Positions 1,818-40,460 of a stretch of 44,465 bases of DNA are shown in pieces; position 1 is the first letter of the stretch; each line of letters starts with the position of its first letter. The position numbers and the translations under genes were made by a program. Where the stretch lies: contig DATNAR010000258.1 of the NCBI GenBank assembly GCA_035607385.1, forward strand, positions 1 to 44,465, written 5' to 3'. The notes under the pieces are model-generated. The model did not search any database, was not told where the DNA came from, and saw only the letters and a program-made list of their open reading frames with translations. This stretch comes from Casimicrobiaceae bacterium. Lineage in GTDB: Bacteria; Pseudomonadota; Gammaproteobacteria; Burkholderiales; Casimicrobiaceae.

Positions 1818-3878
1818 TCAACTCTTGCGCAGCGTCTCGAGGGCCAGCCTGCAAATGTTCTCGACCGTAAAGCCGTATTCTCGCAACAGGACGTCGCCCG
1901 GCGCCGAGGCGCCAAAACGGTCGACGCCGAGCACGGTGCCGTGGTCTCCGACGTAGCGATGCCAACCCAGCGGCGCGCCGGCTTCGACCGCTAGGCGCGC
2001 GCCGATCGAGGGTGGCAATACCGCGTCGCGATATTCCTTGGGCTGAGCGTCGAACAGCTCCCAGCTAGGCATCGAGATCACGCGCGCGCGGACCTCTTGC
2101 GCCGCCAGTTTCTGCGCTGCGGCAACAACGAGGCCGACCTCCGAACCGGTCGCGACCAGGATCAGTTCCGGCTTGCTATCCGGCGCGTCGGCCAACACGT
2201 ACGCGCCACGCCGCAGCCCGTCGGCGGCGGCAAAGTGGGTGCGGTCGAGCGTGGGCACATTCTGCCGCGTCAATATCAGCGCTACCGGTCGATCGCGCGT
2301 TTCCAGCGCGACGCGCCAGGCGACGGCTGTTTCGTTGGCGTCGGCGGGACGGATGACGATGAGGTTCGGAATGGCGCGCAGGCCGGCGAGCTGCTCGACC
2401 GGCTGATGCGTGGGCCCGTCCTCGCCCAAGGCAATACTGTCGTGGGTGAACACATAGACGACGTGCAGTCCCGCCAGCGCGGCGAGCCGCATCGGCGGCC
2501 GCATGTAGTCGGAAAAGATCAGAAATGTCGCGCCGAACGGCACGATGCCGCCATGCGCCGCCAGGCCGTTCATAATGGCGCCCATGGCGTGCTCGCGGAC
2601 GCCGAAGTGCAGATTGCGGCCGGAAGCACTCCAGCCGCCGCCGTCGGAGCCTTGTCGATCGCGGGCGCTCATGCCGGGTGCTTCGAAGTCCCCCAGTCCT
2701 TTCAGCGCGGTGTGAGTCGAGGGATCGAGGTCGGCCGAGCCGCCTATCAAGCCGGGCACGCGCGAAGCGATGGCATTCATCACCTTGCCGGAGGCGACGC
2801 GGGTCGCCATGCCTTTGGCGTCGGCGGGAAAGACCGGAATGTCGGCGCCCCACTCGGCCGGCATTCCGCCGTTAACGAGCTGCTCAAACTCCCGCGCAAG
2901 ATCGGGAAACGCTTTCGCGTACGCGGACATTCTTTCGTTCCAGGCCGCTTCCGCCTGCGCGCCGCGTTCGAGGGCCTGTCGAAAGTACGCCAACGCCCGG
3001 TCGGGAACGAGAAACGCCGGTTCTTCGGGCCAGCTGAGATTGCGCTTGGTCAAGCACACTTCCTCTTCGCCTAATGGCGAACCATGCGCTTCGAAGGTGT
3101 CCTGCTTGTTCGGCGAGCCGTAGCCGAGATGGGTGCGCACCAGGATCAGGGAGGGACGCGCGGTTTCCGCCTGGGCGGCGCGCAGCGCCTGGTCGATCGC
3201 GGCCAGGTCGTTGCCGTCGCCGACCCTTTGCACGTGCCATCCGTAAGCCTCGAAGCGTCGCCCGCGGTCCTCGGTGAAGGTGATACCGGTTCCCGCCGAA
3301 AGCGTGACGCAATTATCATCGTACAGATAGATCAGTTTGCCGAGCTGCAAATGCCCGGCCAGCGATGCCGCTTCCGACGCAACGCCCTCCATCAGGTCGC
3401 CGTCGCTCACGATCCCATACGTAAGATGATCGATGATCTCGAAGCCGGCGCGGTTGTAACGTGCGGCCAGCTCTGCCTCTGCTATCGCGAGGCCCACGCC
3501 ATTGCCGAAGCCTTGTCCGAGCGGCCCGGTGGTCACCTCCACACCAGGGGTGAGGCCGCGTTCGGGGTGTCCGGGCGTCATGCTGCCCCATTGGCGAAAC
3601 CGCTTTATCTCTTCGAGCGATAGAGGGTAGCCGGTGACGTAGAGCAGGCTGTATAGCAGCATCGACCCGTGTCCCGCAGAGAGGACGAAGCGATCACGGT
3701 CGAACCAGCGCGGATTGGCTGGATTGTGTTTGAGAAACCGGCTCCACAACACATGCGCCATCGGCGCGGCGCCCAAGGGCAATCCCGGGTGACCGCTGTC
3801 AGCCCTCTGCACCGCATCGACCGACAGGAAGCGCAGAGTATCGATGCAGGAAGCGTCTAGTGCGGAGGTACGGGGCAT
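1818..3878 (-). CDS. tkt: Transketolase
   Basis: 686 aa from the ATG at 3878 (the ORF is open to 3938). It carries '[30 protein letters not shown]', '[16 protein letters not shown]', 'SDGDLMEGV', '[28 protein letters not shown]', so full-length transketolase signatures are present. Confidence 0.93.
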
Positions 3879-4075
3879 CGCGCAGAACTTTGGCCGGTCT
3901 TTATTTTCCAATGACCGAGCGGCGCATGCTTGGTTCAATGTCGTAACCGCCGACTACCAGGACTTCGCGGGAACTTGAAGTTTTCCGGACGCGAGCGGTC
4001 GCCTAAACGCTGTGAGTGACTGCCCAGCAAATTTCAAAAACCGCGAGTGCCGATGCGGCCATTGTAGCTTTTACA

Positions 4076-4115
4076 GATCAACGATTCCCTACAGCGGCTA
4101 TCCGAGTTTCCCGGC
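4076..4115 (+). promoter_or_regulatory. Copy A of a tripartite 40-nt motif (GATCAACG-N4-CCTACAG-N13-TTCCCGGC), upstream of the GH94/PPP/cgs array
   Basis: It has the same box spacing as copies at 43983-44022 (+), 43849-43888 (-) and 31346-31385 (-). A TAGAAT hexamer follows at 4139-4144 and the first gene starts at 4223. Confidence 0.45.
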
Positions 4116-4222
4116 AGCTGACGGCTCCCTGAAGTCACTAGAATCATAGCTCCACAGCGGCTCATTGCGATGAGGGGCCCGTTCTCGCACTCGCATCCGC
4201 AGCCGTCTCGAGACCTACAACG

Positions 4223-7200
4223 ATGATTGCCAATATCCGAGAGGCGCCGGCACGCACATTCGGCACGAACACTCCCATACCTGAAGTGCAGTTGCTTTCG
4301 AACGGCAGATACCACGTCGTGATTACGAACGTGGGCGGCGGCTACAGCCGTTGGCAAGAGCTGGCGGTGACTCGCTGGCGCGACGATGCGACCTGCGATA
4401 GCTGGGGATTCTTTTGCTACGTCCGCGATGTCGTGACCGGGGAGTTCTGGTCCACGACCTATCAGCCGACGCTGGTGCGCGCGGAGCCTGACGAGGCGGT
4501 TTTCTCGCCGGGGCGCGCGACGTTCCGCCGTCGCGTCCACGACATCGAGACCCGTACCGAAGTCGTCGTTGCACCAGAAGACGATGTCGAGCTACGTCGA
4601 ATCCACGTTGCCAATCGGGCCTCGATACGCAGATCTCTCGATATTACGAGTTATGCGGAAATCGTACTCGCACATCCGGCGACGGACGCGGCACATCCGG
4701 CGTTCGCCAAGCTCTTTGTCGAGACCGAGGTGGTCCGCGAGCATCAGGCGATTCTGAGCACCCGCCGCCCGCGTGCCCCCGACGAGCCGACGGTTTGGAT
4801 GTTTCATCGGCTCGCCGCGTACCGGCCGGCGGGCGACGATGTCTCGTATGAAACGGACCGCCTGCGCTTCATCGGTCGCGGGCACTCGGCGGCGGATCCG
4901 CAAGCGATGCGCGATAGCGCTGCCTTGTCGGGAAGCGCGGGTCCCGTCCTCGACCCGGTGGCGGCGATCCGCACCCGGATCACGCTCGATGCGGGTGAAA
5001 CCGCGACCGTCGATCTGATCAGCGGCGTCGGCCAGTCGCGCGCGACGTGCATGGCCCTGATCGCGAAATGCCAGGAGCGCAACTACGTCCATCACGCTTT
5101 CGATGCGGCAGCGGACAAGGGCCGAGCGATCCTGACCAAGCTCGGTGTCGCCGAGCCCGACACGGAGCGCTTTGCGAGCGTCGCGAGCTCGGTCATCTAC
5201 GCCAACGCGTCGTTGCGCGCCGCCCCGGGCGTTATCGGCCGGAACCGCTTGGGCCAGTCCGGCCTGTGGGGCCACAAGATCTCCGGCGATTTGCCGATCG
5301 TTCTATTGCAGATTGCCGATCCGGCAAAGACGGAACTGCTGCGTCAGCTCGTCGCTGCCCACGCTTACTGGCGCTGGCACGGGCTGGCGGTGGACCTGGT
5401 AATTCTGGTCGAAGCGCGCAGCGGCAGCGAGGCGCCGCGGCGCGAGCAGGTCAGCAAGCTGATTGCCGCCGCCGACGGCGCCGGACGGCTCGATCAAGCG
5501 GGCGGCATATTCGTGCGAACCACCGACGAGATCGACGATGCCGATCGCATCCTGCTCGAGAGCGCAGCGCGCGTCGTGCTCAGCGAAGACGATGGTTCGC
5601 TGGCGCAGGCGCTCGAGCGGCGGCGCACCGCAGCGATCTCGATCCCGGCATTGGCGAGCGCGGGCAAACCTGTCTACGGGTCGCCGCAGGATGTCGAGTG
5701 GCCTCGGCGCGACTTGATCTTCAGCAACGGTCAGGGCGGTTTCGCTGCGGACGGCCGCGAGTACGTCATCACGTCGTCACGCTCACGGATGACGCCGGCA
5801 CCCTGGGTAAACGTCCTGGCCAATCCATCGTTCGGAACGCTGGTCTCGGAGAGCGGCAGCGCCAGTACCTGGAGCGAGAATGCGCACGAGTTCCGTCTCA
5901 CGCCGTGGTCGAACGACCCGGTCGGCGATGCCAACACCGAGGCGTATTACCTTCGCGACGAGGAGAGCCGCCGCGTCTGGTCGCCCACGCTGCTTCCGCG
6001 CGGCGGCGCAGGTCCATACGTCGCGCGGCACGGCTTCGGTTACAGCGTCTTCGAGCACAGCGAGGAGGGAATCGATTCCGAACTGTGCACTTATGTAGCG
6101 ATCGACGCGCCGGTCAAGTTTGCCGTCTTGCGGCTGTCCAATCGCTCGGGTCGCGCGCGCCGCCTGTCGGTCACCGGCTACCTCGAATGGGTGCTCGGTG
6201 ACGAGCGAGAGAAGACGATGATGCACATAGTCACCCAGCTCGATGACGACAGCGGCGCGCTGTTCGCGCGCAATCCCTATAGCGCCGACTTCGGCGGCAG
6301 CGTCGCGTTTTTCGAAGGCGGCGATGATCGGGAGCGGAGTTTCTGTGGCGATCGGACCGAGTTTCTCGGGCGCAACGGCACGCTCCGCGATCCCGCCGCC
6401 ATGGCGCGCTCGCGGCTTTCGGGCACGATCGGCGCAGCGCTAGATCCGTGCGCCGCCATCCAATTGCCGTGCGCATTGGGCGCTGGCAAGACGCGTGAGA
6501 TCGTCTTCCTGCTCGGCGCCGGCCGCAGCGTCGAGCAGGCCCGCGATCTGGTTCGACGCTGGCGAGGATCCGCCGCCGCGCACGATGCGCTGGAAGCGGT
6601 GCGGCGCTACTGGCGGCAAACGCTCGGCGCGGTGCAGGTCAAAACGCCGGACGCTGCCCTCGACATCCTGGCCAACGGCTGGCTGGTGTACCAGATTCTG
6701 GCCTGCCGGATGTGGGGACGCAACGCGTTCTACCAATCGAGCGGCGCGTTCGGATTCCGCGATCAGCTTCAGGACGCGATGGCCTTGATTCATGCTGAGC
6801 CGGAGCTGGTGCGCGAGCACCTGTTGCGCTGCGCATCGCGCCAATTCGCCGAAGGCGATGTCCAGCATTGGTGGCATCCGCCGTCCGGCCGCGGCGTGCG
6901 CACCCGTTGTTCGGACGATTACCTGTGGTTGCCATTCGCGACGTGCCGATACGCGCTGGCCACCGGCGACACCGGCGTACTCGATGAGACCGTCCCTTTC
7001 CTGGAGGGCCGCGCGCTCGCGGCGGGCGAGGACTCGTACTACGATCTGCCCAGGCAGTCGCCGGACGCGGCCGATCTCTACCAGCATTGTGTGCGCGCCA
7101 TCGAGCGCGGGCTCTCGTTCGGCGCGCATGGCTTGCCACTGATGGGCACCGGCGACTGGAACGACGGCATGAACCTGGTCGGCGCCGGCGGCAAGGGCGA

Positions 7201-8137
7201 GAGCGTCTGGCTCGGCTTCTTCCTTTGCTCGGTGCTGACCCAATTCGGCGAGCTGGCGCGGCGGCGCGATGACGTCTCGTTTGCGCAGCGTTGCGGCAGC
7301 GAAGCGGCTCGCTTGCGCGACAGCATCGAGCGGAGCGCCTGGGATGGTGCCTGGTATCGCCGCGCCTATTTCGACGACGGCTCGCCGCTGGGCTCAGCGC
7401 AAAACGCCGAGTGCCGGATCGATTCGATCGCGCAGAGCTGGTCGGTGCTGTCGGGCGCCGGCGAAGCGCAGCGCGCGCGCGCCGCCATGGACGCCGTGGA
7501 CCGCCGGCTCGTCGACCGGGAACACGCCCTGGTCCAGTTGCTGGCTCCGCCGTTCGACAAATTCGAACCCGATCCCGGTTACATCAAGGGATACCTGCGC
7601 GGTGTGCGCGAGAACGGCGGCCAGTATACCCATGCCGCGGTGTGGGCCGCGATGGCGTTCGCGGCGCTCGGCAACACCGACCGCGCGTGGGAATTGTTCA
7701 CCATGATCAATCCGATCAATCACGCGAAATCGGCGGATACGATCGAGCGCTACAAGACGGAGCCTTATGTCCTCGCGTCCGACGTCTACGCGCTGCCGCC
7801 GCACGCCGGCCGCGGCGGCTGGACCTGGTACACCGGTTCGGCCGGCTGGATGTACCGCTTCATCGTGGAATCGCTGCTGGGCTTGCGGCTCGATGTGGAC
7901 AAGCTGCACTTTGCACCCTGCCTGCCGGCGGACTGGACCTCGTTCAAGCTCGACTACCGGTATCGGCAGACGCTCTATCGCGTCAGCGTCCGGCAAATCA
8001 GCACCGCGGACGACGCGGTGCGAGTGACGCTGGATGGGGTCCGCCAGGTCGACCACGGTATTGCGCTGGCGGACGATCGCCTGGACCACGTCGTCGAAGT
8101 GATCATCCGTCGCGCACGCGATCAAGCGAGGAGATGA
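4223..8137 (+). CDS. Stand-alone GH94-family glycoside phosphorylase-like protein (candidate 1,2-beta-oligoglucan phosphorylase); paralog of the C-terminal half of the glucan synthase at 18921-27743
   Basis: 1304 aa. It is collinear with residues from about 1640 to the end of the 2940-aa ORF ('[22 protein letters not shown]' vs 'QLLSNGRLHVMVTAAGGGYSRW'). It carries '[10 protein letters not shown]', '[10 protein letters not shown]', '[11 protein letters not shown]', '[15 protein letters not shown]', as in cellobiose-phosphorylase-type enzymes. An in-frame TAG at 4139 means the ORF cannot extend upstream. Confidence 0.8.
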
Positions 8138-8139
8138 AA

Positions 8140-9168
8140 ATGCAGCTCGGCATGATCGGATTGGGACGCATGGGATCCAATATGGTCCGTCGCCTGACCC
8201 GGGGAGGCCACGGATGCGTGGTCTACGACACCAGCGCCAATGCCGTCGCGGAGGTGGCGCAGCACGGCGTCGTCGGGACGGCATCGCTCGAGGCTCTGGT
8301 CGCGGGCTTGGCCAAGCCGCGCGCCGTGTGGCTGATGGTGCCGGCGGCGGCAGTCGATCAGGCGCTGGCGCAGCTAACCCGGTTGCTCGAGGCCGGCGAC
8401 ATCGTCATCGATGGCGGCAACTCCTACTACCGCGACGATATCCGGCGCGCTGCCGAGCTGAAGGCAGAAAAGATTCACTACGTGGACATCGGCACCAGCG
8501 GTGGCGTGGCGGGGCTCGAGCGAGGCTACTGCCTGATGATCGGCGGCGAAAGAAGGATCGTCGAGCATCTGGCACCGATCCTGACGACGCTCGCCCCGGG
8601 TCGCGACGCCGCGCCGCGCACGCTCGGGCGCACGAAGCGGGACAGCACCGCCGAGCAGGGCTTCCTGCATTGCGGGCCGCACGGCGCCGGCCACTTCGTC
8701 AAGATGGTCCACAACGGCATCGAATACGGATTGATGGCCGCGTACGCCGAGGGACTGAACATCCTGCGCAATGCCGAGGCCGGCAAGCGCGCGGGCACCT
8801 CCGATGCGGAGACGGCGCCGCTGCGCGACCCGCAGTACTACCAGTATGAGTTCGACCTGCCTGACATCGCCGAGGTGTGGCGCCGGGGCAGCGTGATCGG
8901 CTCGTGGCTGCTCGATCTCACCGCCAGCGCGCTCGCCGCCGATCCGGGTCTTGCGAACTATAGCGGGCGCGTCTCCGATTCCGGTGAAGGGCGATGGACG
9001 ATTGCGGCTGCGATCGACGAAGCCGTGCCCGCCCCGATTCTGAGCGCCGCGCTGTATGAACGCTTCAGCTCGCGCAAAGACGCGGATTTCGCCAACAAAA
9101 TATTGTCGGCCATGCGGCATGAGTTCGGCGGCCACGTTGAAAAGCCCGCCAAGCAAGCGAAGGCCTGA
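8140..9168 (+). CDS. gnd: 6-phosphogluconate dehydrogenase (decarboxylating), short Gnd-like form
   Basis: '[19 protein letters not shown]' Rossmann N-terminus, plus 'GGNSYYRDD', '[19 protein letters not shown]', '[24 protein letters not shown]'. GGAG lies 6 nt before the ATG at 8140. An alternative ATG at 8134 overlaps the upstream stop (ATGA). Confidence 0.88.
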
Positions 9169-9170
9169 AG

Positions 9171-10556
9171 ATGGCGGAGCCTGCTTCGGATGCGCTGGTC
9201 TTTTTTGGGGCGACCGGCGATCTGGCCTACAAGCAGATTTTCCCGGCGCTGCAGGCGATGATCCGGCATGGCCGCCTCGACCTGCCGATCATCGGCGTGG
9301 CAAAGTCGAGTTGGAATCTCGACCAGCTTAAAGGTCGTGCGCGCGACAGCCTGCAACACCACGGCGGCGTGGACGACGACGCGTTCGCGAAGCTCTCGGC
9401 GCGACTCCGATACATCGATGGCGATTACGCTGACGACGCGACGTATCGACGCCTGCGCCAGACCTTGGGCGAGGCCGCGCGGCCGTTGCACTACCTGGCC
9501 ATCCCGCCGAGCATGTTCGCCACCGTCGTCGAGGGTCTGGCGAAGGCGGGTTGCGCCAGGAGCGCCCGCGTGGTCGTCGAAAAACCCTTCGGGCGCGATC
9601 TCGCCTCCGCGCAGTCCCTCAACCAGACGCTGGCGCAGGTCTTTGCCGAGTCGGCCGTGTTTCGCATCGACCATTACCTCGGCAAGGAACCGGTCGAGAA
9701 TCTGCTCTACTTCCGCTTTTCCAATAGCTTTCTCGACCCGATCTGGAACCGGCACCATGTCGCCCGCGTGCAGATCACCATGGCCGAGAACTTCGGCGTG
9801 CAGGGGCGAGGCCGCTTCTATGACGAAGTGGGCGCGATTCGCGACGTGGTGCAGAATCACCTGCTGCAGATCACCGCGTTGCTGGCGATGGAGGCGCCGG
9901 TGGGGCGCGGGCCGGACCGCCTGCGCCAGGAGAAGTTGCGGGTCTTCAAGGCGATGCGGCCCATTGCAGCGGACGAAGTGGTGCGCGGCCAATTCCGCGG
10001 CTATCGCGATGAGAAGGGCGTGAAGCCCGACTCGCAGGTCGAGACCTTCGCCGCGCTGCGGCTTCATATCGACACCTGGCGCTGGGCGGGCGTCCCCTTC
10101 GATATCCGGGCCGGCAAGCGGCTCCCGGTCACGGCGACCGAAGTCACGGTCGAAATGAAGCAGCCGCCCCACGCCGTCTTCGATCAAGGCCGGGTCGGCG
10201 AGAACTATTTTCGTTTCCGATTGAGCCCCGAGGTCCTTATCTCGCTGGGTGTGCGGGTCAAGGTGCCCGGCGAAGCGATGGTGGGCGAAGACGCCGAGCT
10301 GGTCCTGCATCGTCATCCCGGCGACGAAATGATGCCGTATGAACGTTTGCTGGGTGACGCGCTCCACGGCGACGCGTCGCTGTTCACCGGCGCCGAGTGC
10401 GTCGAGGAAGCCTGGCGCGTGGTCGATCCGATCCTTGGCGACGCGGCGCCGGTCGCCGAATACGAACCGGATACCTGGGGACCGGCGGCCGCCGGGCGCA
10501 TCATTGCTGGCGAAGGCGGCTGGCACAACCCGGCGTCGACCGAGGCCGCGCCGTGA
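9171..10556 (+). CDS. zwf: Glucose-6-phosphate 1-dehydrogenase
   Basis: 461 aa with 'LVFFGATGDLAYKQIFPAL', 'EKPFGRDLASAQSLN', 'RIDHYLGKEPVENLLYFRFSN', 'VQNHLLQI'. It starts 2 nt after the gnd stop. Confidence 0.93.
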   Translation: MAEPASDALVFFGATGDLAYKQIFPALQAMIRHGRLDLPIIGVAKSSWNLDQLKGRARDSLQHHGGVDDDAFAKLSARLRYIDGDYADDATYRRLRQTLGEAARPLHYLAIPPSMFATVVEGLAKAGCARSARVVVEKPFGRDLASAQSLNQTLAQVFAESAVFRIDHYLGKEPVENLLYFRFSNSFLDPIWNRHHVARVQITMAENFGVQGRGRFYDEVGAIRDVVQNHLLQITALLAMEAPVGRGPDRLRQEKLRVFKAMRPIAADEVVRGQFRGYRDEKGVKPDSQVETFAALRLHIDTWRWAGVPFDIRAGKRLPVTATEVTVEMKQPPHAVFDQGRVGENYFRFRLSPEVLISLGVRVKVPGEAMVGEDAELVLHRHPGDEMMPYERLLGDALHGDASLFTGAECVEEAWRVVDPILGDAAPVAEYEPDTWGPAAAGRIIAGEGGWHNPASTEAAP

Positions 10557-11245
10557 CATCGCGCGACCGGGTCGTGTTCCTCCTGGACTGCGACAACACG
10601 CTACTCGACAACGATCGCGTCCAGGACGATCTCAGGAGCCACCTCGAGCGCGAGTTCGGCGCCGCGAGCAGCGATCGCTACTGGGCGATCTTCGAGGCGC
10701 TGCGCGCCGAGCTCGGCTACGCGGACTACCTCGGCGCCCTGCAGCGCTATCGCCTCGGCGACATGAACGATCCGCGGCTGCTGCTCATGTCCTCCTTTCT
10801 GGTCGACTATCCCTTCGCGGACCGGCTCTATGCCGGCGCGCTCGACGCGATCGCGCATCTCTCCCGTCTGGGCTTGCCGGTGATTCTGTCGGATGGCGAT
10901 GTGGTCTTCCAGCCGCGCAAGATCCAACGCTCCGGGCTGTGGGACGCGGTCGCCGGCCGGGTGCTGATCTACATCCATAAGGAAAAGATGCTGGACGCTG
11001 TCGCACAGGCTTATCCGGCGCGGCATTACGTCGTGGTCGACGACAAGCTGCGCATCCTGGCGGCTATGAAACAGGCCTGGGGCGGCCGGCTGACGACGGT
11101 GTTCCCGCGCCAGGGTCATTACGCCTTCGATGCCAAGAACATCGCCGCCTATCCGCCGGCGGCGCTCACCATCGAGCGTATCGGCGAGCTGGTTCACTAC
11201 GATCTGGCGGCGTTGCTTTCGTTACCGAGTCGCCAATTGCGCTGA
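10553..11245 (+). CDS. HAD-superfamily hydrolase (putative phosphatase)
   Basis: The GTG start overlaps the zwf stop (GTGA, 10553-10556). The N-terminal 'VVFLLDCDNTLLDND' is a DxDxT HAD motif I, and 'VILSDGD' and 'VVVDDK' are late motifs. 230 aa. Confidence 0.6.
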   Translation: MTSRDRVVFLLDCDNTLLDNDRVQDDLRSHLEREFGAASSDRYWAIFEALRAELGYADYLGALQRYRLGDMNDPRLLLMSSFLVDYPFADRLYAGALDAIAHLSRLGLPVILSDGDVVFQPRKIQRSGLWDAVAGRVLIYIHKEKMLDAVAQAYPARHYVVVDDKLRILAAMKQAWGGRLTTVFPRQGHYAFDAKNIAAYPPAALTIERIGELVHYDLAALLSLPSRQLR

Positions 11246-11278
11246 ATGAAAGATGCCCGGAATTCCAGGAGATGACTG

Positions 11279-12370
11279 ATGAAACCCACACAAGCGCTGC
11301 ACGATCTCGGCCAGAGCCTCTGGCTCGACAATATCACCCGCGATTTGCTCGCTCGCGGGACGCTTGGCCGCTACATCGGCGACCTCGCCATCACGGGGCT
11401 AACGTCGAATCCCACGATCTTCGATCACGCCATCAGGAACGCCGACACCTACGACGAAGCCATCCGCCGGAAAAGGCGGGAGGGCAAGTCCGGGGAAGCG
11501 CTGTTTATCGAGCTGGCTTTGGAGGATCTCACTCGGGCCGCCGATCTTTTCCGTCCGGTCCATGACGCGACGGGCGGGATGGACGGCTGGGTGTCGCTGG
11601 AAGTCTCGCCGCTGCTGGCGAACGACACCGCCGGCAGCATCAAGCGGGCAGCGGAACTTCACGCGCAAGGCAAACGGCCCAACCTGTTGATCAAGATTCC
11701 GGGAACTCCGGCCGGGCTTCCGGCCATCGAGCAGTCGATCTTCGCCGGTATTCCGATAAACGTCACGCTGCTGTTTTCGCGCGAGCAATATCTGGCCGCT
11801 GCGCAAGCGTACATGCGCGGGATCGGGCGGCGCCTCGCCGCCGGCCGCGACCCGAAGGTCGCGTCGGTGGCCTCGCTCTTCGTCAGCCGCTGGGACGTCG
11901 CCGTCAAGGACAAGGTAGCGCCCGGCCTGCGCAATCGTCTCGGCATCGCGATCGCCCAGCGCACCTACAAGGCATATCGCGAGCTGCTTGCTTCGCCGGC
12001 CTGGCGCAAACTCGCCGCGGCCGGCGCCCATCCGCAACGCCTGCTCTGGGCCAGCACCGGCACCAAGGATGCCGACGCGTCGGACACGCTCTACGTCGAG
12101 GCGCTGGCGGCTCCCGACACCATCAACACCATCCCCGACAAGACGCTGCTCGCCTTCGCCGACCATGGGCGGGTGAGCGGCGTGCTGCCAAGCGATGGCG
12201 GCGATGCCGAACAGGTGATTGCAGAATTCGCGGCCGTGGGGGTCGACGATGCGGCGCTGGCGGCGAAGCTCCAGCGCGAAGGCGCGCAGGCGTTCGATAA
12301 ATCCTGGAACGAGTTGCTGGACTGTATCGCGGACAAGAGCGAGGCGCTCGAGAAGGTCGCTCGAGTGTAA
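11279..12370 (+). CDS. tal: Transaldolase
   Basis: 363 aa with '[18 protein letters not shown]', '[13 protein letters not shown]', '[15 protein letters not shown]', '[17 protein letters not shown]', 'INVTLLFS'. AGGAG lies 7 nt upstream of the ATG. Confidence 0.92.
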
Positions 12371-12381
12371 CGGAGCCGACG

Positions 12382-14037
12382 ATGAGCGCCGCTCCGAAGC
12401 CGCAGGCCCAAGCGCTGACCGATCGCCCGGCGTGGAAAGCGCTGGCGGTGCATTGGCGAGCATTGCAGCACCGGCATCTGCGGCAGCTCTTTGCCGACGA
12501 CCCGCGGCGCGGCGAACGCTTCGCCGCCGAAGGCGCCGGGATTTATCTCGACTACTCGAAGAACCGAATCAGCGACGAGACGATCCGGCTGCTGGTGGAT
12601 CTCGCCGAGGCGTGCGGCCTGAAGGCGCGCATCGCGGCCATGTTCGCGGGCGACAGGATCAACGTCACGGAAAAACGCGCCGTTCTTCACGTCGCCTTGA
12701 GGGCGCCGAAGGGCGAACGGATCGTCGTCGACGGCGTCGACGTCGTTTCCGAAGTGCACGCGGTGCTCGATCGGATGGCTGCCTTTTCCGACCAGGTCCG
12801 CAACGGCCAATGGCGCGGCTATACCGGCAAGCGCATCCGCAACATCGTCAACATCGGGCTCGGCGGCTCGGATCTGGGTCCGGTCATGGCTTATCACGCG
12901 CTGCGTCATTACAGCCGGCGGGACCTGGACTTTCGCTTCGTCTCCAACGTCGACGGCACGGATTTTGTCGAGGCCACGCGCGAGCTCGACCCGGAACAGA
13001 CGCTGTTCATCATTGCCTCGAAGACGTTCACTACCCTCGGGACCCTTACCAACGCCCATGCGGCCCGCGCGTGGAGCCTGGAGAAGCTCGGCGACGAGCG
13101 CGCGATCAGGCGCCATTTCGTCGCCGTGTCGGCCAACGCGCCCGAGGTCGCGAAATTCGGCATCGACGCCGGCGCCATGTTCGGCTTTTGGGACTGGGTC
13201 GGGGGCCGCTATTCGATGGATTCGGCGATCGGACTTTCCACCATGATCGCCATCGGGACGGACAATTTCCGCGCCATGCTGTCCGGCTTTCATGCGATGG
13301 ACCAGCACTTCCGCACCGCGCCGTTCGATCGAAACTTGCCGGTGCTCATGGGTCTGCTGACCGTCTGGTACAACAATTTTTTCGGCGCCCAGACGGTCGC
13401 GGTGCTCCCGTACGATCAATATCTCGAACGCTTCCCCGCGTACCTGCAGCAATTGACCATGGAGAGCAACGGCAAGCACGTCGCGACGGATGGCGCGCGG
13501 CTCGATTATCAGACGGCGCCGGTCTACTGGGGTGAGCGCGGCACCAATGGCCAGCACTCGTTCTACCAGCTCCTCCACCAGGGGACCAAGCTGGTGCCCT
13601 GCGATTTTATCGGCTTCTGCCGGACCTTGAATCCGCTCGGCCAGCAACACGACTTGCTGATGGCCAACCTGTTCGCGCAGACCGAGGCGCTGGCTTTCGG
13701 CAAGACCGAGGACGAGGTCGAGGCGGAGGGGAGCCCACCGTGGCTCGCGCCGCACCAGAGCTGCGAGGGCAATCGTCCGAGCAACACCATCCTGGCCGAG
13801 CGCCTGACGCCGGAAACGCTCGGGGTTCTGGTGGCGCTCTACGAGCACAGCGTTTTCACCCAGGGGACGATCTGGAACATCGATTCGTTCGACCAGTGGG
13901 GCGTCGAGCTGGGCAAAGTGCTGGCCAAGCGGACGCTCCCCGATCTCGAAAGCGCGCAGGCGCCGAATCTCCAGCACGACAGTTCGACCAACGCGCTGAT
14001 CCGCCGTTACCGCCGGTACCAAAGAGGCCCGTCATGA
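12382..14037 (+). CDS. pgi: Glucose-6-phosphate isomerase
   Basis: 551 aa with '[12 protein letters not shown]', '[18 protein letters not shown]', '[17 protein letters not shown]', '[12 protein letters not shown]', 'ESNGKHV', '[16 protein letters not shown]'. Confidence 0.94.
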
Positions 14038-14993
14038 ACCTCGGCTACGACAAACCGCTTTACCTTCTGCCGTTCGACCATCGCCATTCGTACGTGAGCG
14101 GGATGTTCGGATTCAAGCCGCCGCTCACGCCGTCCCAGCATGACCGCGTCGCCGATAGCAAGCGGCTCATCTATGCGGGGTTCAAGCAAGCGCTCGCCCA
14201 CGGTGTGGCGCCCGCATGCGCCGGCATCCTGGTCGACGAGGAATTCGGCGCCGACATTCTGCGCGATGCGATCAATGATCGGTACTGCACTGCGCTGTCG
14301 ACCGAGCAGAGCGGATCGGACGAGTTCGAGTTCGAGTACGGCACGGCATTCGCGGAGCACATCGAAGCGTTCAATCCGACCTTCGCCAAGGTGCTCGTGC
14401 GCTACAACCCCGAAGGCGACGCGGCTGTCAATCGGCGGCAGACGGCGCGGCTCAGAGAACTGTCCGACTACTGCCGGGTCTCGGGTCCACGGTTCATGTT
14501 CGAGTTGCTGGTGCCGGCGACCGAGGCACAGATGGCGGGCGTGCGGCAAGACAAGGAGGCCTACGACTTGCAGGTTCGGCCGCGATTGATGATGCAAGCG
14601 TTGTCGGCTCTGCAAGAAGCCGGCATCGAGCCCGATGTCTGGAAGATCGAAGGACTCGCTCGCCGCGAGGATTGCGAGCGCATGGTAGAGATCGCGCGGC
14701 GCGGCGACCGCAATGAAGTCGGCTGCATCGTCCTTGGGCGCGGCGCCGACGAACAGAAGGTCGTGACCTGGCTCGAGACGGCCGCTTCGGTGACCGGATT
14801 CATCGGCTTCGCCGTCGGACGCACGACCTTCTGGGATGCGGTGGCCGACTACGAGGCAGGCGATGCCACGCGAGAAGAAGCCGCCGCGCGGATCGCCGAA
14901 CGCTATCGCGAATGGATTGCCGTCTTCGAGCGGACCGGCGGCGTCCCCGACGCGCGTACGCGAGCACGGGTCGATGCAACAGGGCCGGCCTGA
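14034..14993 (+). CDS. DUF2090-type protein (class I aldolase-like; the domain found at the C-terminus of some IolC proteins and annotated as 2-deoxy-5-keto-D-gluconate-6-phosphate aldolase domain)
   Basis: The ATG overlaps the pgi stop (ATGA, 14034-14037). 319 aa with '[12 protein letters not shown]', '[16 protein letters not shown]', '[13 protein letters not shown]', 'FMFELLVP', 'DVWKIEG', '[11 protein letters not shown]'. Family assignment is from memory of this domain's conserved blocks. Confidence 0.55.
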
Positions 14994-15032
14994 CTTGTCC
15001 GCCGGCGAAAGCAAGCAGCGAGGGACGCGACG

Positions 15033-16706
15033 ATGAAGGTCAGCCCCCTGGCGGGGAAGCCCGCGCCGCCCGCGATCCTGGTCGACGTACCGAAGCTGGT
15101 CTCGCGGTACTACACCGATGCGCCGGATCCGTCGCTGGCTCTCCAACGGGTCGCGTTCGGTACCTCCGGACATCGTGGCTCGTCGTTCGAGCGCTCGTTC
15201 AACGAGTGGCACGTGCTCGCGATCAGTCAAGCCATCTGTCGCTACCGCAGGCGACGGGGCATCGACGGCCCGCTGTTTCTCGGCATCGATACCCATGCGC
15301 TCTCGGCCCCTGCGTTCGCCAGCGCGCTGGAAGTCCTCGCGGCGAATGCCGTGGAGGTCATGATCGCGCGAAACGACGAATACACGCCGACCCCCGCGGT
15401 TTCGCACGCGATACTGCGCTATAACCGGGGACGGAGCACGGGACTGGCCGACGGCATCGTGATCACGCCATCGCACAACCCGCCCGATAACGGCGGTTTC
15501 AAGTACAACCCGCCCGACGGTGGACCGGCGGGCGAGGACGTGACCGGGGCGATCGAAGCGCTCGCCAACAGGTTTCTCGAGCGCAAGCTCAAGGGCGTGA
15601 AGCGCACGTCGCTGGCACGGGCTCTGCGCGCGGCAACGACGCATCGCCACGATTTCCTGCGCGCGTATGTCGGCGACCTCGGCGCGGTCATCGACATGGA
15701 CGTTGTTCGCGGTGGCGGCATCCACATGGGGGTCGATCCGCTGGGCGGAGCCGGCGTGCACTACTGGCCGGCAATCGCCGAGCACTACCGCCTGAACTTG
15801 AGCATCGTCAACCGGGAGGTCGATCCGACGTTCCGCTTCATGACCGTCGACTGGGATGGTCGCATCCGAATGGACCCGTCGTCGTCGTACGCGATGCAGT
15901 CATTGATCGAATTGAAGGATCGCTTCGACATTGCCTTTGCCTGCGACACCGACCACGACCGGCACGGAATCGTGACCCGAAGCGCCGGCTTGCTGCCTCC
16001 CAATCACTACCTGGCGGTGGCCATCGATTACCTCTTCCGCCATCGCCGGCGCTGGCCCGCGCGGTCGGCCATCGGCAAGACCGTCGTCAGCAGCGCGATG
16101 ATCGATCGCGTGAGCGCAAGGCTTGGCCGCACCCTCTACGAAGTGCCGGTGGGATTCAAGTGGTTCGTCGATGGTCTGCTGGCGAGTTCGCTTGGCTTCG
16201 CCGGCGAAGAGAGCGCCGGCGCCTGCTTTTTGCGGCGCAATGGCAGGGTGTGGACGACGGACAAGGATGGCATCGTGCCAGCGCTGCTGGCGGCGGAAAT
16301 CACGGTGAGCACCGGTCGGGACCCGTGCGAGGGCTACCGCGAGATCGCGCGGGAGCTCGGCGAACCCGTCGAGCGCCGGGTGCAGGCAGAGGCTAGCCCA
16401 AGGCAAAAGCAGCGGCTGACGCGCCTTTCGCCGGCGCAGTTCCGGCACACGGAACTGGCCGGCGAGAAAATCCAGCGCGTCCTCGATCGGGCCCCCGGCA
16501 ACGACGCGCCCATCGGCGGCCTGAAGGTCGTCGCCGCCAGCGGGTGGTTCGCGGCGCGTCCCTCGGGGACCGAAGACATCTACAAGATTTATGCCGAGAG
16601 CTTTCGCGGCGAGGCCCACTTGAACCGCATCGTCGACGAGGCGCAAGCGATGGTCGCCGGCGCCTTGGCGAGCGCGGCGCCCAAACCGGAGCGCGCGAAG
16701 AAGTGA
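15033..16706 (+). CDS. pgm: Phosphoglucomutase, alpha-D-glucose phosphate-specific
   Basis: 557 aa with 'FGTSGHRGSS' (active-site Ser loop), 'ITPSHNPPDNGGFKYNPPDGGPA', 'ACDTDHDRHGIV', 'GEESAGA', 'RPSGTEDIYKIYAESF'. Confidence 0.92.
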   Translation: MKVSPLAGKPAPPAILVDVPKLVSRYYTDAPDPSLALQRVAFGTSGHRGSSFERSFNEWHVLAISQAICRYRRRRGIDGPLFLGIDTHALSAPAFASALEVLAANAVEVMIARNDEYTPTPAVSHAILRYNRGRSTGLADGIVITPSHNPPDNGGFKYNPPDGGPAGEDVTGAIEALANRFLERKLKGVKRTSLARALRAATTHRHDFLRAYVGDLGAVIDMDVVRGGGIHMGVDPLGGAGVHYWPAIAEHYRLNLSIVNREVDPTFRFMTVDWDGRIRMDPSSSYAMQSLIELKDRFDIAFACDTDHDRHGIVTRSAGLLPPNHYLAVAIDYLFRHRRRWPARSAIGKTVVSSAMIDRVSARLGRTLYEVPVGFKWFVDGLLASSLGFAGEESAGACFLRRNGRVWTTDKDGIVPALLAAEITVSTGRDPCEGYREIARELGEPVERRVQAEASPRQKQRLTRLSPAQFRHTELAGEKIQRVLDRAPGNDAPIGGLKVVAASGWFAARPSGTEDIYKIYAESFRGEAHLNRIVDEAQAMVAGALASAAPKPERAKK

Positions 16707-16786
16707 ATGCTCGACCCCGCCGGCATTACGAAATCCATACCGCGCGCTGAATCGAGCGTTGCAGAAGGCAACAATCGGTCGAGACG

Positions 16787-18085
16787 ATGAGCAGCGATAA
16801 GCCCGCCATTGATACGGAACTGGAAAGGCTTCAGAGCGACACCTTTCGCTACTTCGTGCACGAGACCAATCCCGCCAACGGACTGGTGATCGACAAGACC
16901 GCGCCCGACTGGCCCTCCAGCATTGCCGCCACCGGGCTCGCGCTGACCGCGTATCCCGTCGCGATCGAGCGCGGATTCATCACGCGCGATGCGGCGATTG
17001 CAAGAGTTCTCACCACGCTGCGCTTCTTCTGGAACAGCCGGCAAGGCACCGAAGCGGACGCCACTGGCTACCGGGGCTTCTACTATCATTTTCTCGACAT
17101 GCGGACCGGCCAGCGGGCGTGGCGTTGTGAGCTATCGACGGTCGACAGCGCCATTCTGCTGGCCGGCGCGCTGACCGCGGGCGCCTACTTCGACGCGACC
17201 ACTCCCGACGAACGGGAAATCCGGCACCTCGCCGACGCGCTCTATCGCCGCGCCGACTGGCAATGGGCGCAAAACGGGGGCGCCACGGTCACGCACGGCT
17301 GGAAGTCCGAGAGCGGATTCCTGCCGTGGCGGTGGGAAGGCTATGACGAAGCCCTGCTGTTGTACGTGCTCGGCCTCGGCTCGCCGACGCATCCGCTGCC
17401 AACCGAAAGCTATGCCGGATGGTGCTCGACCTACGAGTGGAAGGAAAGCTACGGCTACGAGTATCTGTACGCCGGGCCGCTGTTCACCCATCAGATTTCG
17501 CACATCTGGATCGATTTTCGCGGGATCCAGGACGCGTTCATGCGCGGCAAAGGTATCGATTACTTCGAGAACAGCCGTCGCGCGACTTATGTGCAGCAAC
17601 AGTACGCGATCGCCAATCCACTCAAGTTCGCGGGCTATAGTCGAGATTGTTGGGGGATCACTGCGAGCGACGGCCCCGGCCCCAATACCATCAAATTGCA
17701 GGGAATCGAGCGCCAATTCTTCGATTATGTGGGACGCGGCGTACCGTACGGTCCCGACGACGGCACCATTGCGCCATGGGCAGTGGTAACGTCGCTGCCG
17801 TTCGCGCCCGAGATCGTGTTGCCTGCAATCGAATATCTTGTCCACGAGGTCGATTTGAAAGCGGGCAACCCCTATGGCTTCAAGGCGACATTCAATCCGA
17901 CGTATCCCCACAAGTCCCACAATCCCTATGGCTGGATATCGCCGTGGCACTACGGGATCAACCAAGGACCGATCAATCCGATGATCGAAAATTATCGGAC
18001 AGGCCTGGTCTGGCATTTGCTGCGAAAGTGTCCGTACATCGTTACTGGATTGAAGCGGGCCGGTTTCACCGGAGCTTGGCTATGA
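16787..18085 (+). CDS. GH144-like 'glucoamylase family' protein (candidate endo-beta-1,2-glucanase), no signal peptide
   Basis: 432 aa with 'GFYYHFLDMRTGQR', 'ELSTVDSAILLAGAL', 'GPLFTHQISHIWIDFRG', 'CWGITASDGPGP', 'NPYGFKATFNP', 'YGINQGPINPMIENYRTGLVW'. This is the block pattern I associate with Pfam 'Glycoamylase'/GH144. The N-terminus 'MSSDKPAIDTELERLQSD' is polar, not a leader peptide. Confidence 0.68.
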   Translation: MSSDKPAIDTELERLQSDTFRYFVHETNPANGLVIDKTAPDWPSSIAATGLALTAYPVAIERGFITRDAAIARVLTTLRFFWNSRQGTEADATGYRGFYYHFLDMRTGQRAWRCELSTVDSAILLAGALTAGAYFDATTPDEREIRHLADALYRRADWQWAQNGGATVTHGWKSESGFLPWRWEGYDEALLLYVLGLGSPTHPLPTESYAGWCSTYEWKESYGYEYLYAGPLFTHQISHIWIDFRGIQDAFMRGKGIDYFENSRRATYVQQQYAIANPLKFAGYSRDCWGITASDGPGPNTIKLQGIERQFFDYVGRGVPYGPDDGTIAPWAVVTSLPFAPEIVLPAIEYLVHEVDLKAGNPYGFKATFNPTYPHKSHNPYGWISPWHYGINQGPINPMIENYRTGLVWHLLRKCPYIVTGLKRAGFTGAWL

Positions 18086-18813
18086 AGGTCTCGCTGCGTA
18101 CGGACGGCGCCGGCAAGCAGCAGTGCCGTTGGCATGCGGCATCCGACCCGGCTGCGTTGCACCGGGCCGCGGCGGTAAGCGTCCTGGCGGCGGCCGATCG
18201 CGCGCTTCGCGCGCGGCGGCAATTCCGCGTCGTACTCGCCGGCGGAAACACGCCGCGCGGAACCTATCAAAGGCTCCGTGCCAGCGCAAGCGATTGGTCG
18301 GCCTGGCACATCTATTTTGGCGACGAGCGTTGCCTGCCTGCCGGCGATCCGGGACGCAACTCGCGGATGGCCGCAGAGGCCTGGCTCGATCACGTACCCA
18401 TCCCGGGGGCCCAGCAACATCCGATTGCCGCCGAGCTGGGGCCGAGCGAAGGCGCGGAGAGGTATGCGACGATCCTGCACTCCGTAGGCGAATTCGATCT
18501 GGTGCTGCTCGGGCTCGGCGAGGACGGCCACACGGCAAGCCTTTTTCCAGGACATGACTGGGGGCAGCGGCCGGCGTCGGCGAGCACGTTGGCGGTATTC
18601 GACGCGCCCAAGCCCCCGCCGCAGCGCGTGTCGATGAGCGCCGCGCGGCTGAGCTGCGCCCGGCAAGTCATCTTTCTGGTCTGCGGCAACGATAAACGCG
18701 AGGCAATACGGCAATGGCGTGCCGGCCAATGCATTCCAGCGCGGGCAATTGCGCCCATGGCCGGTGTCGACGTGCTCGTGGAGTCGTCGCTGCTCGGACC
18801 ACGCGGCGACTGA
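18082..18813 (+). CDS. pgl: 6-phosphogluconolactonase
   Basis: The ATG overlaps the upstream stop (ATGA, 18082-18085). 243 aa with 'VVLAGGNTPRGTYQRL', 'WHIYFGDERCLP', 'DLVLLGLGEDGHTASLFPG'. Confidence 0.88.
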   Translation: MKVSLRTDGAGKQQCRWHAASDPAALHRAAAVSVLAAADRALRARRQFRVVLAGGNTPRGTYQRLRASASDWSAWHIYFGDERCLPAGDPGRNSRMAAEAWLDHVPIPGAQQHPIAAELGPSEGAERYATILHSVGEFDLVLLGLGEDGHTASLFPGHDWGQRPASASTLAVFDAPKPPPQRVSMSAARLSCARQVIFLVCGNDKREAIRQWRAGQCIPARAIAPMAGVDVLVESSLLGPRGD

Positions 18814-18920
18814 CGGGAGACAAGAACCGATGCGATCTTCCGGCTGTTTCGCTGCTCATCACCCGAATCTTCGGCACAAGCCGGCCGCGCCGCCTCTAGA
18901 ATGCTGAGCAGCGGCGAGAA

Positions 18921-28117: not shown

Positions 28118-29317
28118 CTATCCGGGCTTGCCGTCGAGGCGCGACCGCGACAGCACCGGCCAGTAACGAACCGCGTAGATAGTGAACGCAACGGACCAGC
28201 AACCGCCGGAAACGATGACGGTCGTTACGTAGGCGTCGGGTAAGAGCATGGCGCCCAGGACGCGGATCAACGCCGCGAGTTGAATGAGAACGAAGCATGC
28301 CACCTCGAAGCCGTCTGCCGCAAGCGAGCGCCCGGTATGGCCCCGTGCGGTGCGCGTCATCATACCCATCGTCATGCCACCGATGGCCCCGATCGTCAGC
28401 GCGTGAACAGCGAGCGGCTCTGCTACCCACCCAATCGCCGCAAGTCCTCGCAGCACGAGATAGACGACAATCCAGGCGTAAGACGCATGCAGAATCCACA
28501 CCAGCGGTGTCCTGATGGTTTGCCACGGTTGCCACAGACAGAGCCGTGCGGCGTGCGCAGCGGCGACGACAATCGCGAGGATTGCAATTATTTCGGAGGG
28601 CAGCTGCAGAACGTCGGCTCCGAGCAAAACCAGAACGCCGCCCAACGCGAGTTTCTCGACGAGCGGGTTGCGCGAGGCTCGCGCGCCCGGAATGGCGTTG
28701 TTGGTGAACATCGGAATCACTCGGCCGCCGATCACGGCCATGATGAACAGGACGAGATCGAGACCGACCTGCAAACCGGCCCGCTCCGGCCACGCGAACA
28801 CGCCCAGATAGGATAGATGCAGTGAGAGGACGGCTACGGCAAGGAGTAACAGCACCGCGACCAAGAAGTAGTTTCGACGGTTGCCACTGCGTACCAACGG
28901 GATCCCTATGCCCACCGCCACCGCTACCGGAAAAGCTGCGTTTACCAACGCAGCGGCGCTCTCGTAGGGCGTCAGTACCAGCGCTCTACCGGCGATCCAG
29001 AGCAACGCGAACGCCACGAGCGTTGCCCCGGTCGGCGTGGCTTGGCCGGTCCAGGTGCGAACGGCGGTGAACAGAAACCCGGCGATCACCGCCAGCGCGT
29101 AACCGAACAACATCTCGTGGCCGTGCCAAACCTGGCTGCGCAAATACGCAGCGGGCAGATAGCCCGCGTATTGGCAGACCCACAGTGGAATCGAGACGGC
29201 GGCGAAAATGCTGGCGAGCAGATAGAACGGCCGAAAGCCCAGGCTCCAAAGCGCAAAACGGGATGCTAGCGCCGTCGGCCGCAGCGCGGTCGGGCCGCGG
29301 TGCATGATCTCAGGCAC
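28118..29317 (-). CDS. nnrS: NnrS family membrane protein (haem/copper protein linked to NO stress)
   Basis: 399 aa and polytopic. The N-terminal 'LWSLGFRPFYLLASIFAAVSIPLWV..VWHGHEMLFGYALAVIAGFLFTAVRTWTG' matches the conserved NnrS opening. Confidence 0.85.
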   Translation of the reverse strand: MPEIMHRGPTALRPTALASRFALWSLGFRPFYLLASIFAAVSIPLWVCQYAGYLPAAYLRSQVWHGHEMLFGYALAVIAGFLFTAVRTWTGQATPTGATLVAFALLWIAGRALVLTPYESAAALVNAAFPVAVAVGIGIPLVRSGNRRNYFLVAVLLLLAVAVLSLHLSYLGVFAWPERAGLQVGLDLVLFIMAVIGGRVIPMFTNNAIPGARASRNPLVEKLALGGVLVLLGADVLQLPSEIIAILAIVVAAAHAARLCLWQPWQTIRTPLVWILHASYAWIVVYLVLRGLAAIGWVAEPLAVHALTIGAIGGMTMGMMTRTARGHTGRSLAADGFEVACFVLIQLAALIRVLGAMLLPDAYVTTVIVSGGCWSVAFTIYAVRYWPVLSRSRLDGKPG

Positions 29318-29353
29318 AAATCGAGCCCCTTAGCGCTGTCGCCGGGCGAAGCA

Positions 29354-29668: not shown

Positions 29669-29733
29669 GATGACTCCTTAATGCCGCAACACGCGGCTGA
29701 AAATTGTTGCCGGCGCTTCACGGTTGACGGCGG

Positions 29734-31095: not shown

Positions 31096-31345
31096 CGTTC
31101 GCTCCCCGCTCAGCTGTTGATTCGAATCGTATTGATCCTTCAACCTTTGTGACCGACCGGCTCCGACCCAACCGTCCAGTCCGACGACCCGAACGATTGC
31201 GGCGATCGCACATCAGTTCGCGCAGGCCGTAGTCAAAAAAGGATCTTTCCTGGCTTGTTTGGGCGGCAGGAAACAATGGGCTCGGCAAGCGCTCTAAGAG
31301 TGACCGGAAGGAGGCTCATTGTGATATCGCGCCCGGCGCCACATC

Positions 31346-32500: not shown

Positions 32501-32511
32501 GGTGTTCAGGC

Positions 32512-35230: not shown

Positions 35231-35239
35231 GCTATCGTT

Positions 35240-40455: not shown

Positions 40456-40460
40456 GTTTT

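Follow-up and report, generated by a model that had tools for sequence, protein, structure and literature searches.

A gene at positions 4223–8137 on the forward strand of a 44,465-nt contig from a Casimicrobiaceae bacterium (DATNAR010000258.1, assembly GCA_035607385.1; the whole stretch is referred to here as the window) encodes a free-standing form of the GH94 phosphorylase (GP) module that makes up the C-terminal half of cyclic β-1,2-glucan synthase (Cgs). The free gene is the first of an operon of sugar-phosphate enzymes, and a complete synthase is encoded ∼10.8 kb downstream on the same strand. Its product is probably a soluble β-1,2-glucan phosphorylase that works in the degradative direction and feeds glucose-1-phosphate to phosphoglucomutase and the cyclic oxidative pentose-phosphate pathway. 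This reading builds on the integrity of the gene, the architecture of the protein, the conservation of its active site, the monophyly of its family, and a conserved gene neighborhood.

The open reading frame (ORF) begins with ATG and encodes 1304 amino acids followed by a stop codon. In a BLASTP comparison its residues 11–1304 aligned with residues 1614–2912 of the 2940-amino acid synthase (ORF 18921–27743, forward strand) with 772 of 1300 positions identical (59%), 72% positives, 7 gap positions, and a score of 1506 bits. The match is far above chance and collinear throughout, in keeping with a preliminary description of the sequence, which had called the ORF collinear end to end with the C-terminal half of the synthase. 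Two PF06165 stretches, PF17167, and a GH65C-like C-terminal sandwich are common to both proteins (E 1e-125 to 3e-166 for 2x PF06165 and PF17167 in the free protein). The synthase additionally contains Pfam GT2_3 and Glycoamylase (cyclase, CY) domains and transmembrane-like hydrophobic segments; its own GH94 module begins at ∼23730 and has intact catalytic residues. Identity between the free protein and this synthase is 52% in the first β-supersandwich (GP1), 49% in the Rossmann-fold-like (RFL) insert, 61% in the second β-supersandwich (GP2), and 70% in the catalytic domain, so that the N-terminal sandwich is indeed the more diverged part, as had been noted. An earlier count of 22 mismatches in one 100-residue stretch was of the right order, but the stretch chosen here contains 26, and the number depends on the stretch taken.

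The ORF is a genuine separate gene and not a truncated second synthase. An in-frame TAG at 4139–4141 bars extension upstream, as previously pointed out, and there is no ATG, GTG, or TTG between this codon and 4223. A decayed cgs was sought by running synthase residues 1–1620 in tblastn over all frames of the remainder of the window; the best match had E=2.3, and the possibility raised at the outset that synthase-like sequence lies upstream in another frame was thus not borne out. The adjacent gene, assigned to transketolase (tkt) by Pfam, is divergent (1818–3938, reverse strand) and separated from the GH94 gene by the intergenic region 3939–4222; the same arrangement of tkt on the reverse and GH94 on the forward strand is present in three orthologous loci (L016, L085, L087). 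About 66 homologues of the same length share a homologous start, M-x(∼20)-PEVQLLSNG. The conclusion that the gene is separate, which agrees with the preliminary description, follows from the lack of upstream remnants, the divergent tkt as in orthologous loci, and these same-start homologues. An independently assembled metagenome contig from ENA (L001) contains an identical GH94 gene with the same boundaries, and at least 22 metagenome runs from soil or the rhizosphere each contain 85–97% of the k-mers of the locus. No transmembrane-like or hydrophobic segment and no signal peptide was detected in the protein, which is predicted to be soluble and cytoplasmic.

The best match of the free protein in the PDB is Agrobacterium tumefaciens Cgs (8RF0/8RF9; phmmer E 5e-302). 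Residues 20–1267 align with residues 1558–2815 of 8RF0, and residue 1 therefore corresponds to approximately position 1539. Sedzicki et al. placed the beginning of the A. tumefaciens GP module at residue 1536, and their truncation 1–1540 deleted the module (PMC10901819). The start of the free protein and the domain boundary consequently differ by no more than a few residues, close to the exact coincidence originally proposed. The Cgs module has been divided into GP1, RFL (1847–2012), GP2, and GP3, with RFL touching the synthase N-terminal domain (PMC10901819), and the free protein contains the GP1, RFL, GP2, and catalytic segments contiguously over the span aligned with Cgs 1558–2815. GP1 (residues ∼1–310; 4223–5152) has PF06165 at 18–268 and strands in an AF2 model at 22–270, followed by a helical linker at 273–326; it stands where dimeric GH94 enzymes have their partner subunit. 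The RFL insert (residues ∼311–485; 5153–5677) shows a gap-poor alignment to Cgs RFL, and in the model this region has four strands (359–364, 391–396, 429–433, and 451–454) that alternate with helices in an α/β unit spanning 359–469. RFL has hitherto been described in Cgs alone; the free-standing phosphorylase LpSOGP is without it (PMC10901819). GP2 (residues ∼486–795; 5678–6607) contains the second PF06165 stretch and is supported by the AF2 model and Foldseek, the GH94 (α/α)6 catalytic domain (residues 796–1220; 6608–7882) corresponds to PF17167 at 796–1220, and the C-terminal β-sandwich (residues 1221–1304; 7883–8134) includes a GH65C-like PF03633 match at 1221–1258 together with AF2 strands.

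The AF2 models were made as two halves, residues 1–490 (pLDDT 72, pTM 0.77) and 486–1304 (pLDDT 68, pTM 0.73). Foldseek aligned ∼460–478 of the 490 residues of the N-terminal half to the Cgs structures 8RF9/8RF0 only (TMq 0.76), other GH94 structures covering just its sandwich (∼300 columns). The C-terminal half matched Cgs with a TMq of 0.75 and 45–46% identity and dimeric GH94 phosphorylases with a TMq of ∼0.72, and LpSOGP ranked 33rd; matches to GH94 structures reach E 1e-42. The structure prediction that had been suggested as a check thus reproduces the Cgs GP module in both halves, RFL included. Membership in GH94 is clear from the profile scores, 420 bits for PF17167 (cut-off 27) and 551 bits for PF06165 (cut-off 23). 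Pfam detected GH94 domains only, there is no transmembrane-like segment, and no synthase N-terminal half is encoded upstream in any frame; since the GT84, transmembrane, and cyclase parts are all absent, the free protein is not a synthase.

Both copies retain the sequence GDWND (free residues 977–981, synthase 2580–2584), the motif of the phosphate-site region (free 1129, synthase 2732), and a third shared motif from the 100-residue comparison mentioned above (free 878, synthase 2481), and the earlier impression that neither copy looks dead holds at the level of individual catalytic and phosphate-binding residues. By alignment to 8RF9/8RF0, Asp847 (the Asp of FRD) corresponds to A. tumefaciens D2393 and Asp981 (the second Asp of GDWND; 7163–7165) to D2528, and Asp981 is the predicted catalytic acid. 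The −1 subsite and phosphate residues of LpSOGP are R630, D631, W758, D760, E917, Y922, and H924 (PMC5309861); judged by motif spacing, their counterparts in the free protein are R846, D847 (6758–6763 for the pair), W979, D981, E1130, Y1135, and H1137 (7610–7633 for the last three), to which G1205 and S1206 are added. Of these, the Arg-Asp pair, Trp, and Glu belong to the −1 subsite, and Tyr and His bind at the phosphate site. When 70 free and 131 fused sequences were aligned, R846, D847, W979, D981, E1130, Y1135, H1137, and G1205 proved 97–100% conserved in both groups, S1206 being less conserved (81%). The loss of catalytic or phosphate-binding residues that would have spoken against a working enzyme was therefore not encountered, and with the full set of catalytic, −1 subsite, and phosphate residues in place the free protein is predicted to be catalytically competent. 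Only four type-II sites are fixed differently in the free and fused groups (167 E/Q, 572 T/G, 835 A/G, and 1049 W/Y). Separately, four contig-truncated fragments of fused synthases (P0080, P0082, P0097, and P0106) have Gln in place of the phosphate-site His (GQYTQ) and may represent a subgroup of synthases whose phosphorylase module has changed or no longer works.

Comparison with characterized systems places the free protein closest to the Cgs module. The domain order GP1, RFL, GP2, catalytic, C-terminal is identical to that of A. tumefaciens Cgs, the equivalents of D2393 and D2528 are present, and the C-terminal half shows 45–46% identity and Foldseek TMq values of 0.75–0.77. Unlike Cgs, the 1304-amino acid protein is without the N-terminal domain, GT84, the transmembrane helices (six in Cgs), and the GH144/GH189-like cyclase; its gene heads a pentose-phosphate/pgm operon, and its clade is separate from all fused modules sampled. 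Reviews list LiSOGP and LpSOGP (Listeria and Lachnoclostridium) as the only free β-1,2-glucan phosphorylases (PMC8140972, PMC11842490). LiSOGP (Lin1839) and LpSOGP (PDB 5H3Z), EC 2.4.1.333, are likewise free, cytosolic GH94 proteins; they too carry an additional N-terminal sandwich in place of the dimer partner, and their −1 subsite and phosphate residues agree with those of the free protein; a catabolic role in β-1,2-glucan use would be a further likeness. They differ in lacking the RFL insert and are remote in sequence: phmmer gives E 4e-6 over the catalytic domain only, and in Foldseek the identity is ∼15% and the rank 33, so that the characterized enzymes are distant relatives. The SOGPs come from Firmicutes without a synthase, where their genes form clusters with those of a GH3 β-glucosidase and an ABC importer for exogenous substrate (PMC3960220). 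By sequence the free protein falls outside the SOGP clade, but it may still have SOGP activity; phosphorolysis of sophoro-oligosaccharides of DP ≥3 is suggested by its relationship to the GP module of Cgs and by the co-encoded β-1,2-glucanase homologue described below. The dimeric GH94 enzymes, cellobiose and chitobiose phosphorylases (1V7V, 3QDE), share the GP2, catalytic, and C-terminal folds and the catalytic residues (TMq ∼0.72), but these are ∼800-amino acid homodimers without GP1 or RFL that act on β-1,4 disaccharides, and identity is 22–24%. No description of a free-standing Cgs-type GH94 protein or of a GH94–pentose-phosphate operon was found in full-text literature searches.

A protein search returned many homologues of 1267–1350 amino acids with up to 74% identity, from Variovorax, Glaciimonas, Undibacterium, Herminiimonas, and metagenome-assembled genomes (MAGs) of Burkholderiales; nine ‘short’ matches carry a cyclase-domain tail and are contig-truncated synthases. 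Public labels on the homologues include ‘cellobiose phosphorylase’, ‘glycosyl hydrolase family 65 protein’, and ‘GH36-type glycosyl hydrolase domain-containing protein’. In a neighbor-joining tree of Kimura distances (201 sequences, 1270 columns, 100 bootstrap replicates) all free sequences lie on one side of a single bipartition. The core free clade of 69 members (55–74% identical) was recovered in 100/100 replicates, and adding the long-branched protein of a Marinobacter MAG (L059) lowers the support to 79–83/100. With Bacteroidota as the root, the free clade falls within the synthase modules of Proteobacteria; its neighbor-joining sister group (L046, L020, L056, L077, L075, L066, L082) has a support of only 7/100, and a tree from the catalytic domain alone did not recover the free clade. 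The module of the window synthase groups with Burkholderiales/Usitatibacter synthases (L033, L030, L004, L014). The free GH94 proteins thus form an old monophyletic family that split from a proteobacterial synthase, and the gene in the window is no recent copy of its neighbor. RFL is less conserved among the free proteins than among the fused modules (0.69 vs 0.76) and every other domain is more conserved, a weak hint that would agree with the free form having given up its interaction with the N-terminal domain of the synthase. In a Luteimonas MAG (L077) a second GH94 ORF (50–2692), 51% identical to free residues 498–1272, lies directly upstream of a full synthase; this ORF meets the contig end and is either a free GH94 gene or the last part of a second synthase in tandem.

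The position of the two copies, 15 kb apart on the same strand, could also arise if the free gene were a recent internal duplication or a decaying fragment of a second synthase without a function of its own, the former being the outcome that the requested phylogeny had been expected to reveal or dismiss. A recent duplication is ruled out by an identity of only 59% and by the finding that the free and fused copies of the window were sisters in 0/100 replicates. Decay is ruled out by the absence of N-half remnants, the intact active site, and the ∼66 full-length homologues with the same start. We therefore regard this origin as extremely improbable.

The genes that follow the free GH94 gene, all on the forward strand, are closely packed, with successive intergenic gaps from GH94 to pgl of 2, 2, −4, 33, 11, −4, 39, 80, and −4 nt. 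A gnd-related 6-phosphogluconate dehydrogenase gene (8140–9168; called on L001) starts 2 nt past the GH94 stop and encodes the short ‘gnd_rel’ type, named NAD+-dependent by NCBIfam (TIGR00872, 417 bits, cut-off 297). It is followed by zwf for glucose-6-phosphate dehydrogenase (9171–10556; Pfam and TIGR00871, 476 bits, cut-off 401), a HAD-superfamily hydrolase gene that overlaps the zwf stop by 4 nt (10553–11245), tal for transaldolase (11279–12370) and pgi for phosphoglucose isomerase (12382–14037), both from profile matches, and a gene for a DUF2090 class-I-aldolase-like protein in ATGA overlap with the pgi stop (14034–14993). Next come pgm for α-phosphoglucomutase (15033–16706; TIGR01132, 843 bits, cut-off 778), the gene for a 432-amino acid β-1,2-glucanase homologue of the XcSGL/GH144 clan (16787–18085; PF10091 ‘Glycoamylase’, E 7e-86), and, in ATGA overlap with the glucanase stop, pgl for 6-phosphogluconolactonase (18082–18813), in which the motif GLGEDGHTASLFPG was read from the sequence; the orthologous position is annotated Glucosamine_iso in L083 and L086. 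The synthase gene starts 107 nt past the pgl stop. With the divergent tkt, the operon is predicted to supply all enzymes of the cyclic oxidative pentose-phosphate pathway plus pgm. The HAD hydrolase, copies of which are 68–74% identical in L002, L016, L045, L059, and L066, and the DUF2090 protein are conserved members of the cluster without an assignable pathway role.

The best PDB match of the glucanase homologue is 8XUL (XCC2207/XcSGL; E 5e-123), followed at a distance by the GH144 enzyme CpSGL (5GZH; E 1e-39). XcSGL is a characterized β-1,2-glucanase and carries a signal peptide (PMC12102758). The homologue in the window starts 80 nt past pgm, which leaves no room for a signal peptide, and it is therefore predicted to be cytoplasmic. 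A cytoplasmic β-1,2-glucanase encoded beside a cyclic-glucan synthase is thus implied by the predicted protein.

The neighborhood was compared in ten free loci (the window, L002, L016, L059, and L083–L088) by scoring gnd, zwf, pgl, HAD, tal, pgi, DUF2090, pgm, and tkt within 10 kb. At least three genes of this set are present in 10/10 free loci. Among 75 fused-synthase loci seven have any gene of the set and three have at least three (Fisher p = 6e-9 for any gene and 9e-11 for at least three), and linkage to the pentose-phosphate/pgm genes is a hallmark of the free form. A glucanase homologue of 432–445 amino acids is encoded in six of the ten free loci (the window, L083, L084, L085, L087, and L088). 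In two relatives the neighbors of free GH94 include genes for phosphoketolase (XFP) and acetate kinase (at 20360–22747 and 18232–19446 in L084 and at 7564–9948 and 3823–5025 in L088), which suggests an ATP-yielding outlet for sugar phosphates. The three fused loci with at least three set genes contain full synthases inside the cluster and come from MAGs of a gammaproteobacterium (L045), a member of Lysobacterales (L046), and a member of Rhodanobacteraceae (L075). In L045 the genes run tkt, zwf, gnd | cgs, HAD, tal, pgi, pgm, with cgs located where the window has free GH94; this arrangement is a possible ancestral state and suggests that the free gene descends from a synthase that was part of such a cluster beforehand.

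The same neighborhoods bear on whether the free protein acts in trans on the synthase, as the preliminary description had offered alongside degradation. It would then dock on or beside the membrane synthase, trim nascent protein-bound chains, and alter the ring size of cyclic glucan. The protein is built like the cis module and has its RFL, the part that touches the N-terminal domain in the cryo-electron microscopy structure of the synthase, and a full synthase is encoded nearby in the window and also adjoins the free gene in L083. There is no synthase within 10 kb at 8/10 free loci, however, and the constant partners are catabolic sugar-phosphate enzymes rather than the synthase. In addition, the GP active site of the window synthase is itself intact and needs no complementation, and RFL is relatively relaxed in the free clade whereas the other domains are more conserved. 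Nothing specific was found in favor of control in trans, the gene context favoring the degradative option instead; trimming of the synthase product is less likely than a degradative role, and we consider it improbable.

Alternatively, the free clade could have kept the fold and moved to a different β-glucoside or glucan, its link to the synthase being merely historical. Such a shift would agree with the four fixed differences between the groups, with the absence of a nearby synthase at most free loci, and with the Variovorax cluster (L002), where a GH15 gene (TREH_N + Glyco_hydro_15) stands in place of the glucanase homologue. The catalytic domain is nevertheless 70% identical to the Cgs GP domain, its −1 subsite and phosphate residues are all identical, and a homologue of a characterized β-1,2-glucanase is encoded at 6/10 loci, which makes another substrate unlikely. 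Specificity for β-1,2-glucan is accordingly suggested by the identity of the catalytic domain together with the small number of clade-discriminating sites.

The Cgs GP module phosphorolyses β-1,2-glucan from the non-reducing end (PMC10901819, PMC11842490), and phosphate shortens Cgs products in vitro (PMC10901819), which establishes this chemistry for the homologue of the free protein. In the proposed degradative pathway, the signal-less endo-β-1,2-glucanase homologue would open β-1,2-glucan, either cyclic glucan from the neighboring Cgs or long linear chains. The free phosphorylase would then use inorganic phosphate to release glucose units by inverting cleavage from the non-reducing end as α-glucose-1-phosphate, which pgm would convert to glucose-6-phosphate. 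Oxidation of glucose-6-phosphate by the zwf, pgl, and gnd products, with tal, tkt, and pgi recycling carbon, would complete the cyclic oxidative pathway. Phosphoglucomutase is the enzyme that turns glucose-1-phosphate, the phosphorylase product, into glucose-6-phosphate. Cellular phosphate far exceeds glucose-1-phosphate, a condition that favors phosphorolysis by glycoside phosphorylases; the degradative direction is suggested by this generally high ratio and by the operon partners.

GH94 reactions are reversible, and the enzyme could instead run in the synthetic direction, elongating β-1,2-oligoglucan primers made by the glucanase with glucose-1-phosphate supplied through pgi and pgm, both of which are in the operon, and so providing linear glucan for cyclization or storage without UDP-glucose. 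SOGP and a β-1,2-glucanase have been used in this manner in vitro for primer amplification and β-1,2-glucan building (PMC8140972). The operon, however, is dominated by the oxidative, decarboxylating zwf, pgl, and gnd steps, which consume glucose-6-phosphate, the phosphoketolase and acetate kinase neighbors in relatives point to catabolism, and the cellular excess of phosphate over glucose-1-phosphate favors phosphorolysis. We judge the synthetic direction unlikely.

Several observations weigh against phosphorolytic degradation as the function of the free protein. Neither a β-glucosidase for residual sophorose nor a glucan importer or exporter is encoded in the window, leaving the proposed pathway incomplete. 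The pgm and pgi products could equally provide glucose-1-phosphate for synthesis. A full synthase adjoins the free gene in only two of the ten loci, the window and L083, and the pentose-phosphate cluster flanks some full synthases too, so that the linkage may reflect glucan metabolism generally and not degradation. The AF2 models are of moderate confidence only (pLDDT 68–72), no RNA runs containing the free GH94 gene were found, and the catalytic acid has one exception: the Variovorax orthologue (L002/P0024, GCA_001541225.1) reads GDWNE, with Glu for Asp.

The upstream motif and TAGAAT box that had been credited to the free gene stand only in part. The hexamer is present at 4139–4144, where it contains the in-frame TAG stop, and recurs before the synthase at 18897–18902, with CAGCGGC at most ∼20 nt downstream of each copy. 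A scan of 3800–19200 for the sigma-70 consensus gave no promoter, a repeat search between the upstream regions of free GH94 and the synthase gave chance-level matches only, and nothing conserved emerged when the region between tkt and GH94 was aligned across orthologous loci. An own promoter or a shared upstream motif is thus not upheld, and the significance of the recurring TAGAAT is unproven.

Past the synthase, the segments 28118–36603 and 37740–43763 encode NnrS, a PAS histidine kinase, a quinol-type nitric-oxide reductase (NorB), a PEP-mutase-family protein, a CMD-family protein, a DUF3141/PHB-depolymerase-like hydrolase, and a branched-chain amino-acid ABC transporter. These modules are unrelated to the glucan cluster. 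No NdvA/ChvA-type glucan exporter is encoded in the window.

A natural soluble version of the GP module offers a tractable enzyme with which to probe chain-length preference in the synthase, and the free GH94 protein would be a new catalyst for making or trimming β-1,2-glucans. It would also mark an undescribed intracellular degradation route in bacteria that make β-1,2-glucan themselves. A more far-reaching and tentative proposal, which we think rather doubtful, is a complete cytoplasmic make-and-break cycle for β-1,2-glucan in soil Betaproteobacteria. If it operates, Cgs would build the glucan, the signal-less endo-glucanase and the free phosphorylase would mobilize it without ATP, and pgm and the cyclic oxidative pentose-phosphate pathway would burn the product, with phosphoketolase and acetate kinase added in relatives. 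β-1,2-glucan would then be an endogenous carbon and energy reserve or a quickly adjustable osmolyte pool, beyond its periplasmic and host-interaction role, in analogy to the route from glycogen phosphorylase to the oxidative pentose-phosphate pathway in cyanobacteria. The strong linkage of free GH94 to pgm and the full cyclic oxidative set suggests a role for β-1,2-glucan in carbon and redox economy, a hypothesis that can be put to a genetic test in carriers that grow in culture, among them Variovorax and Undibacterium.

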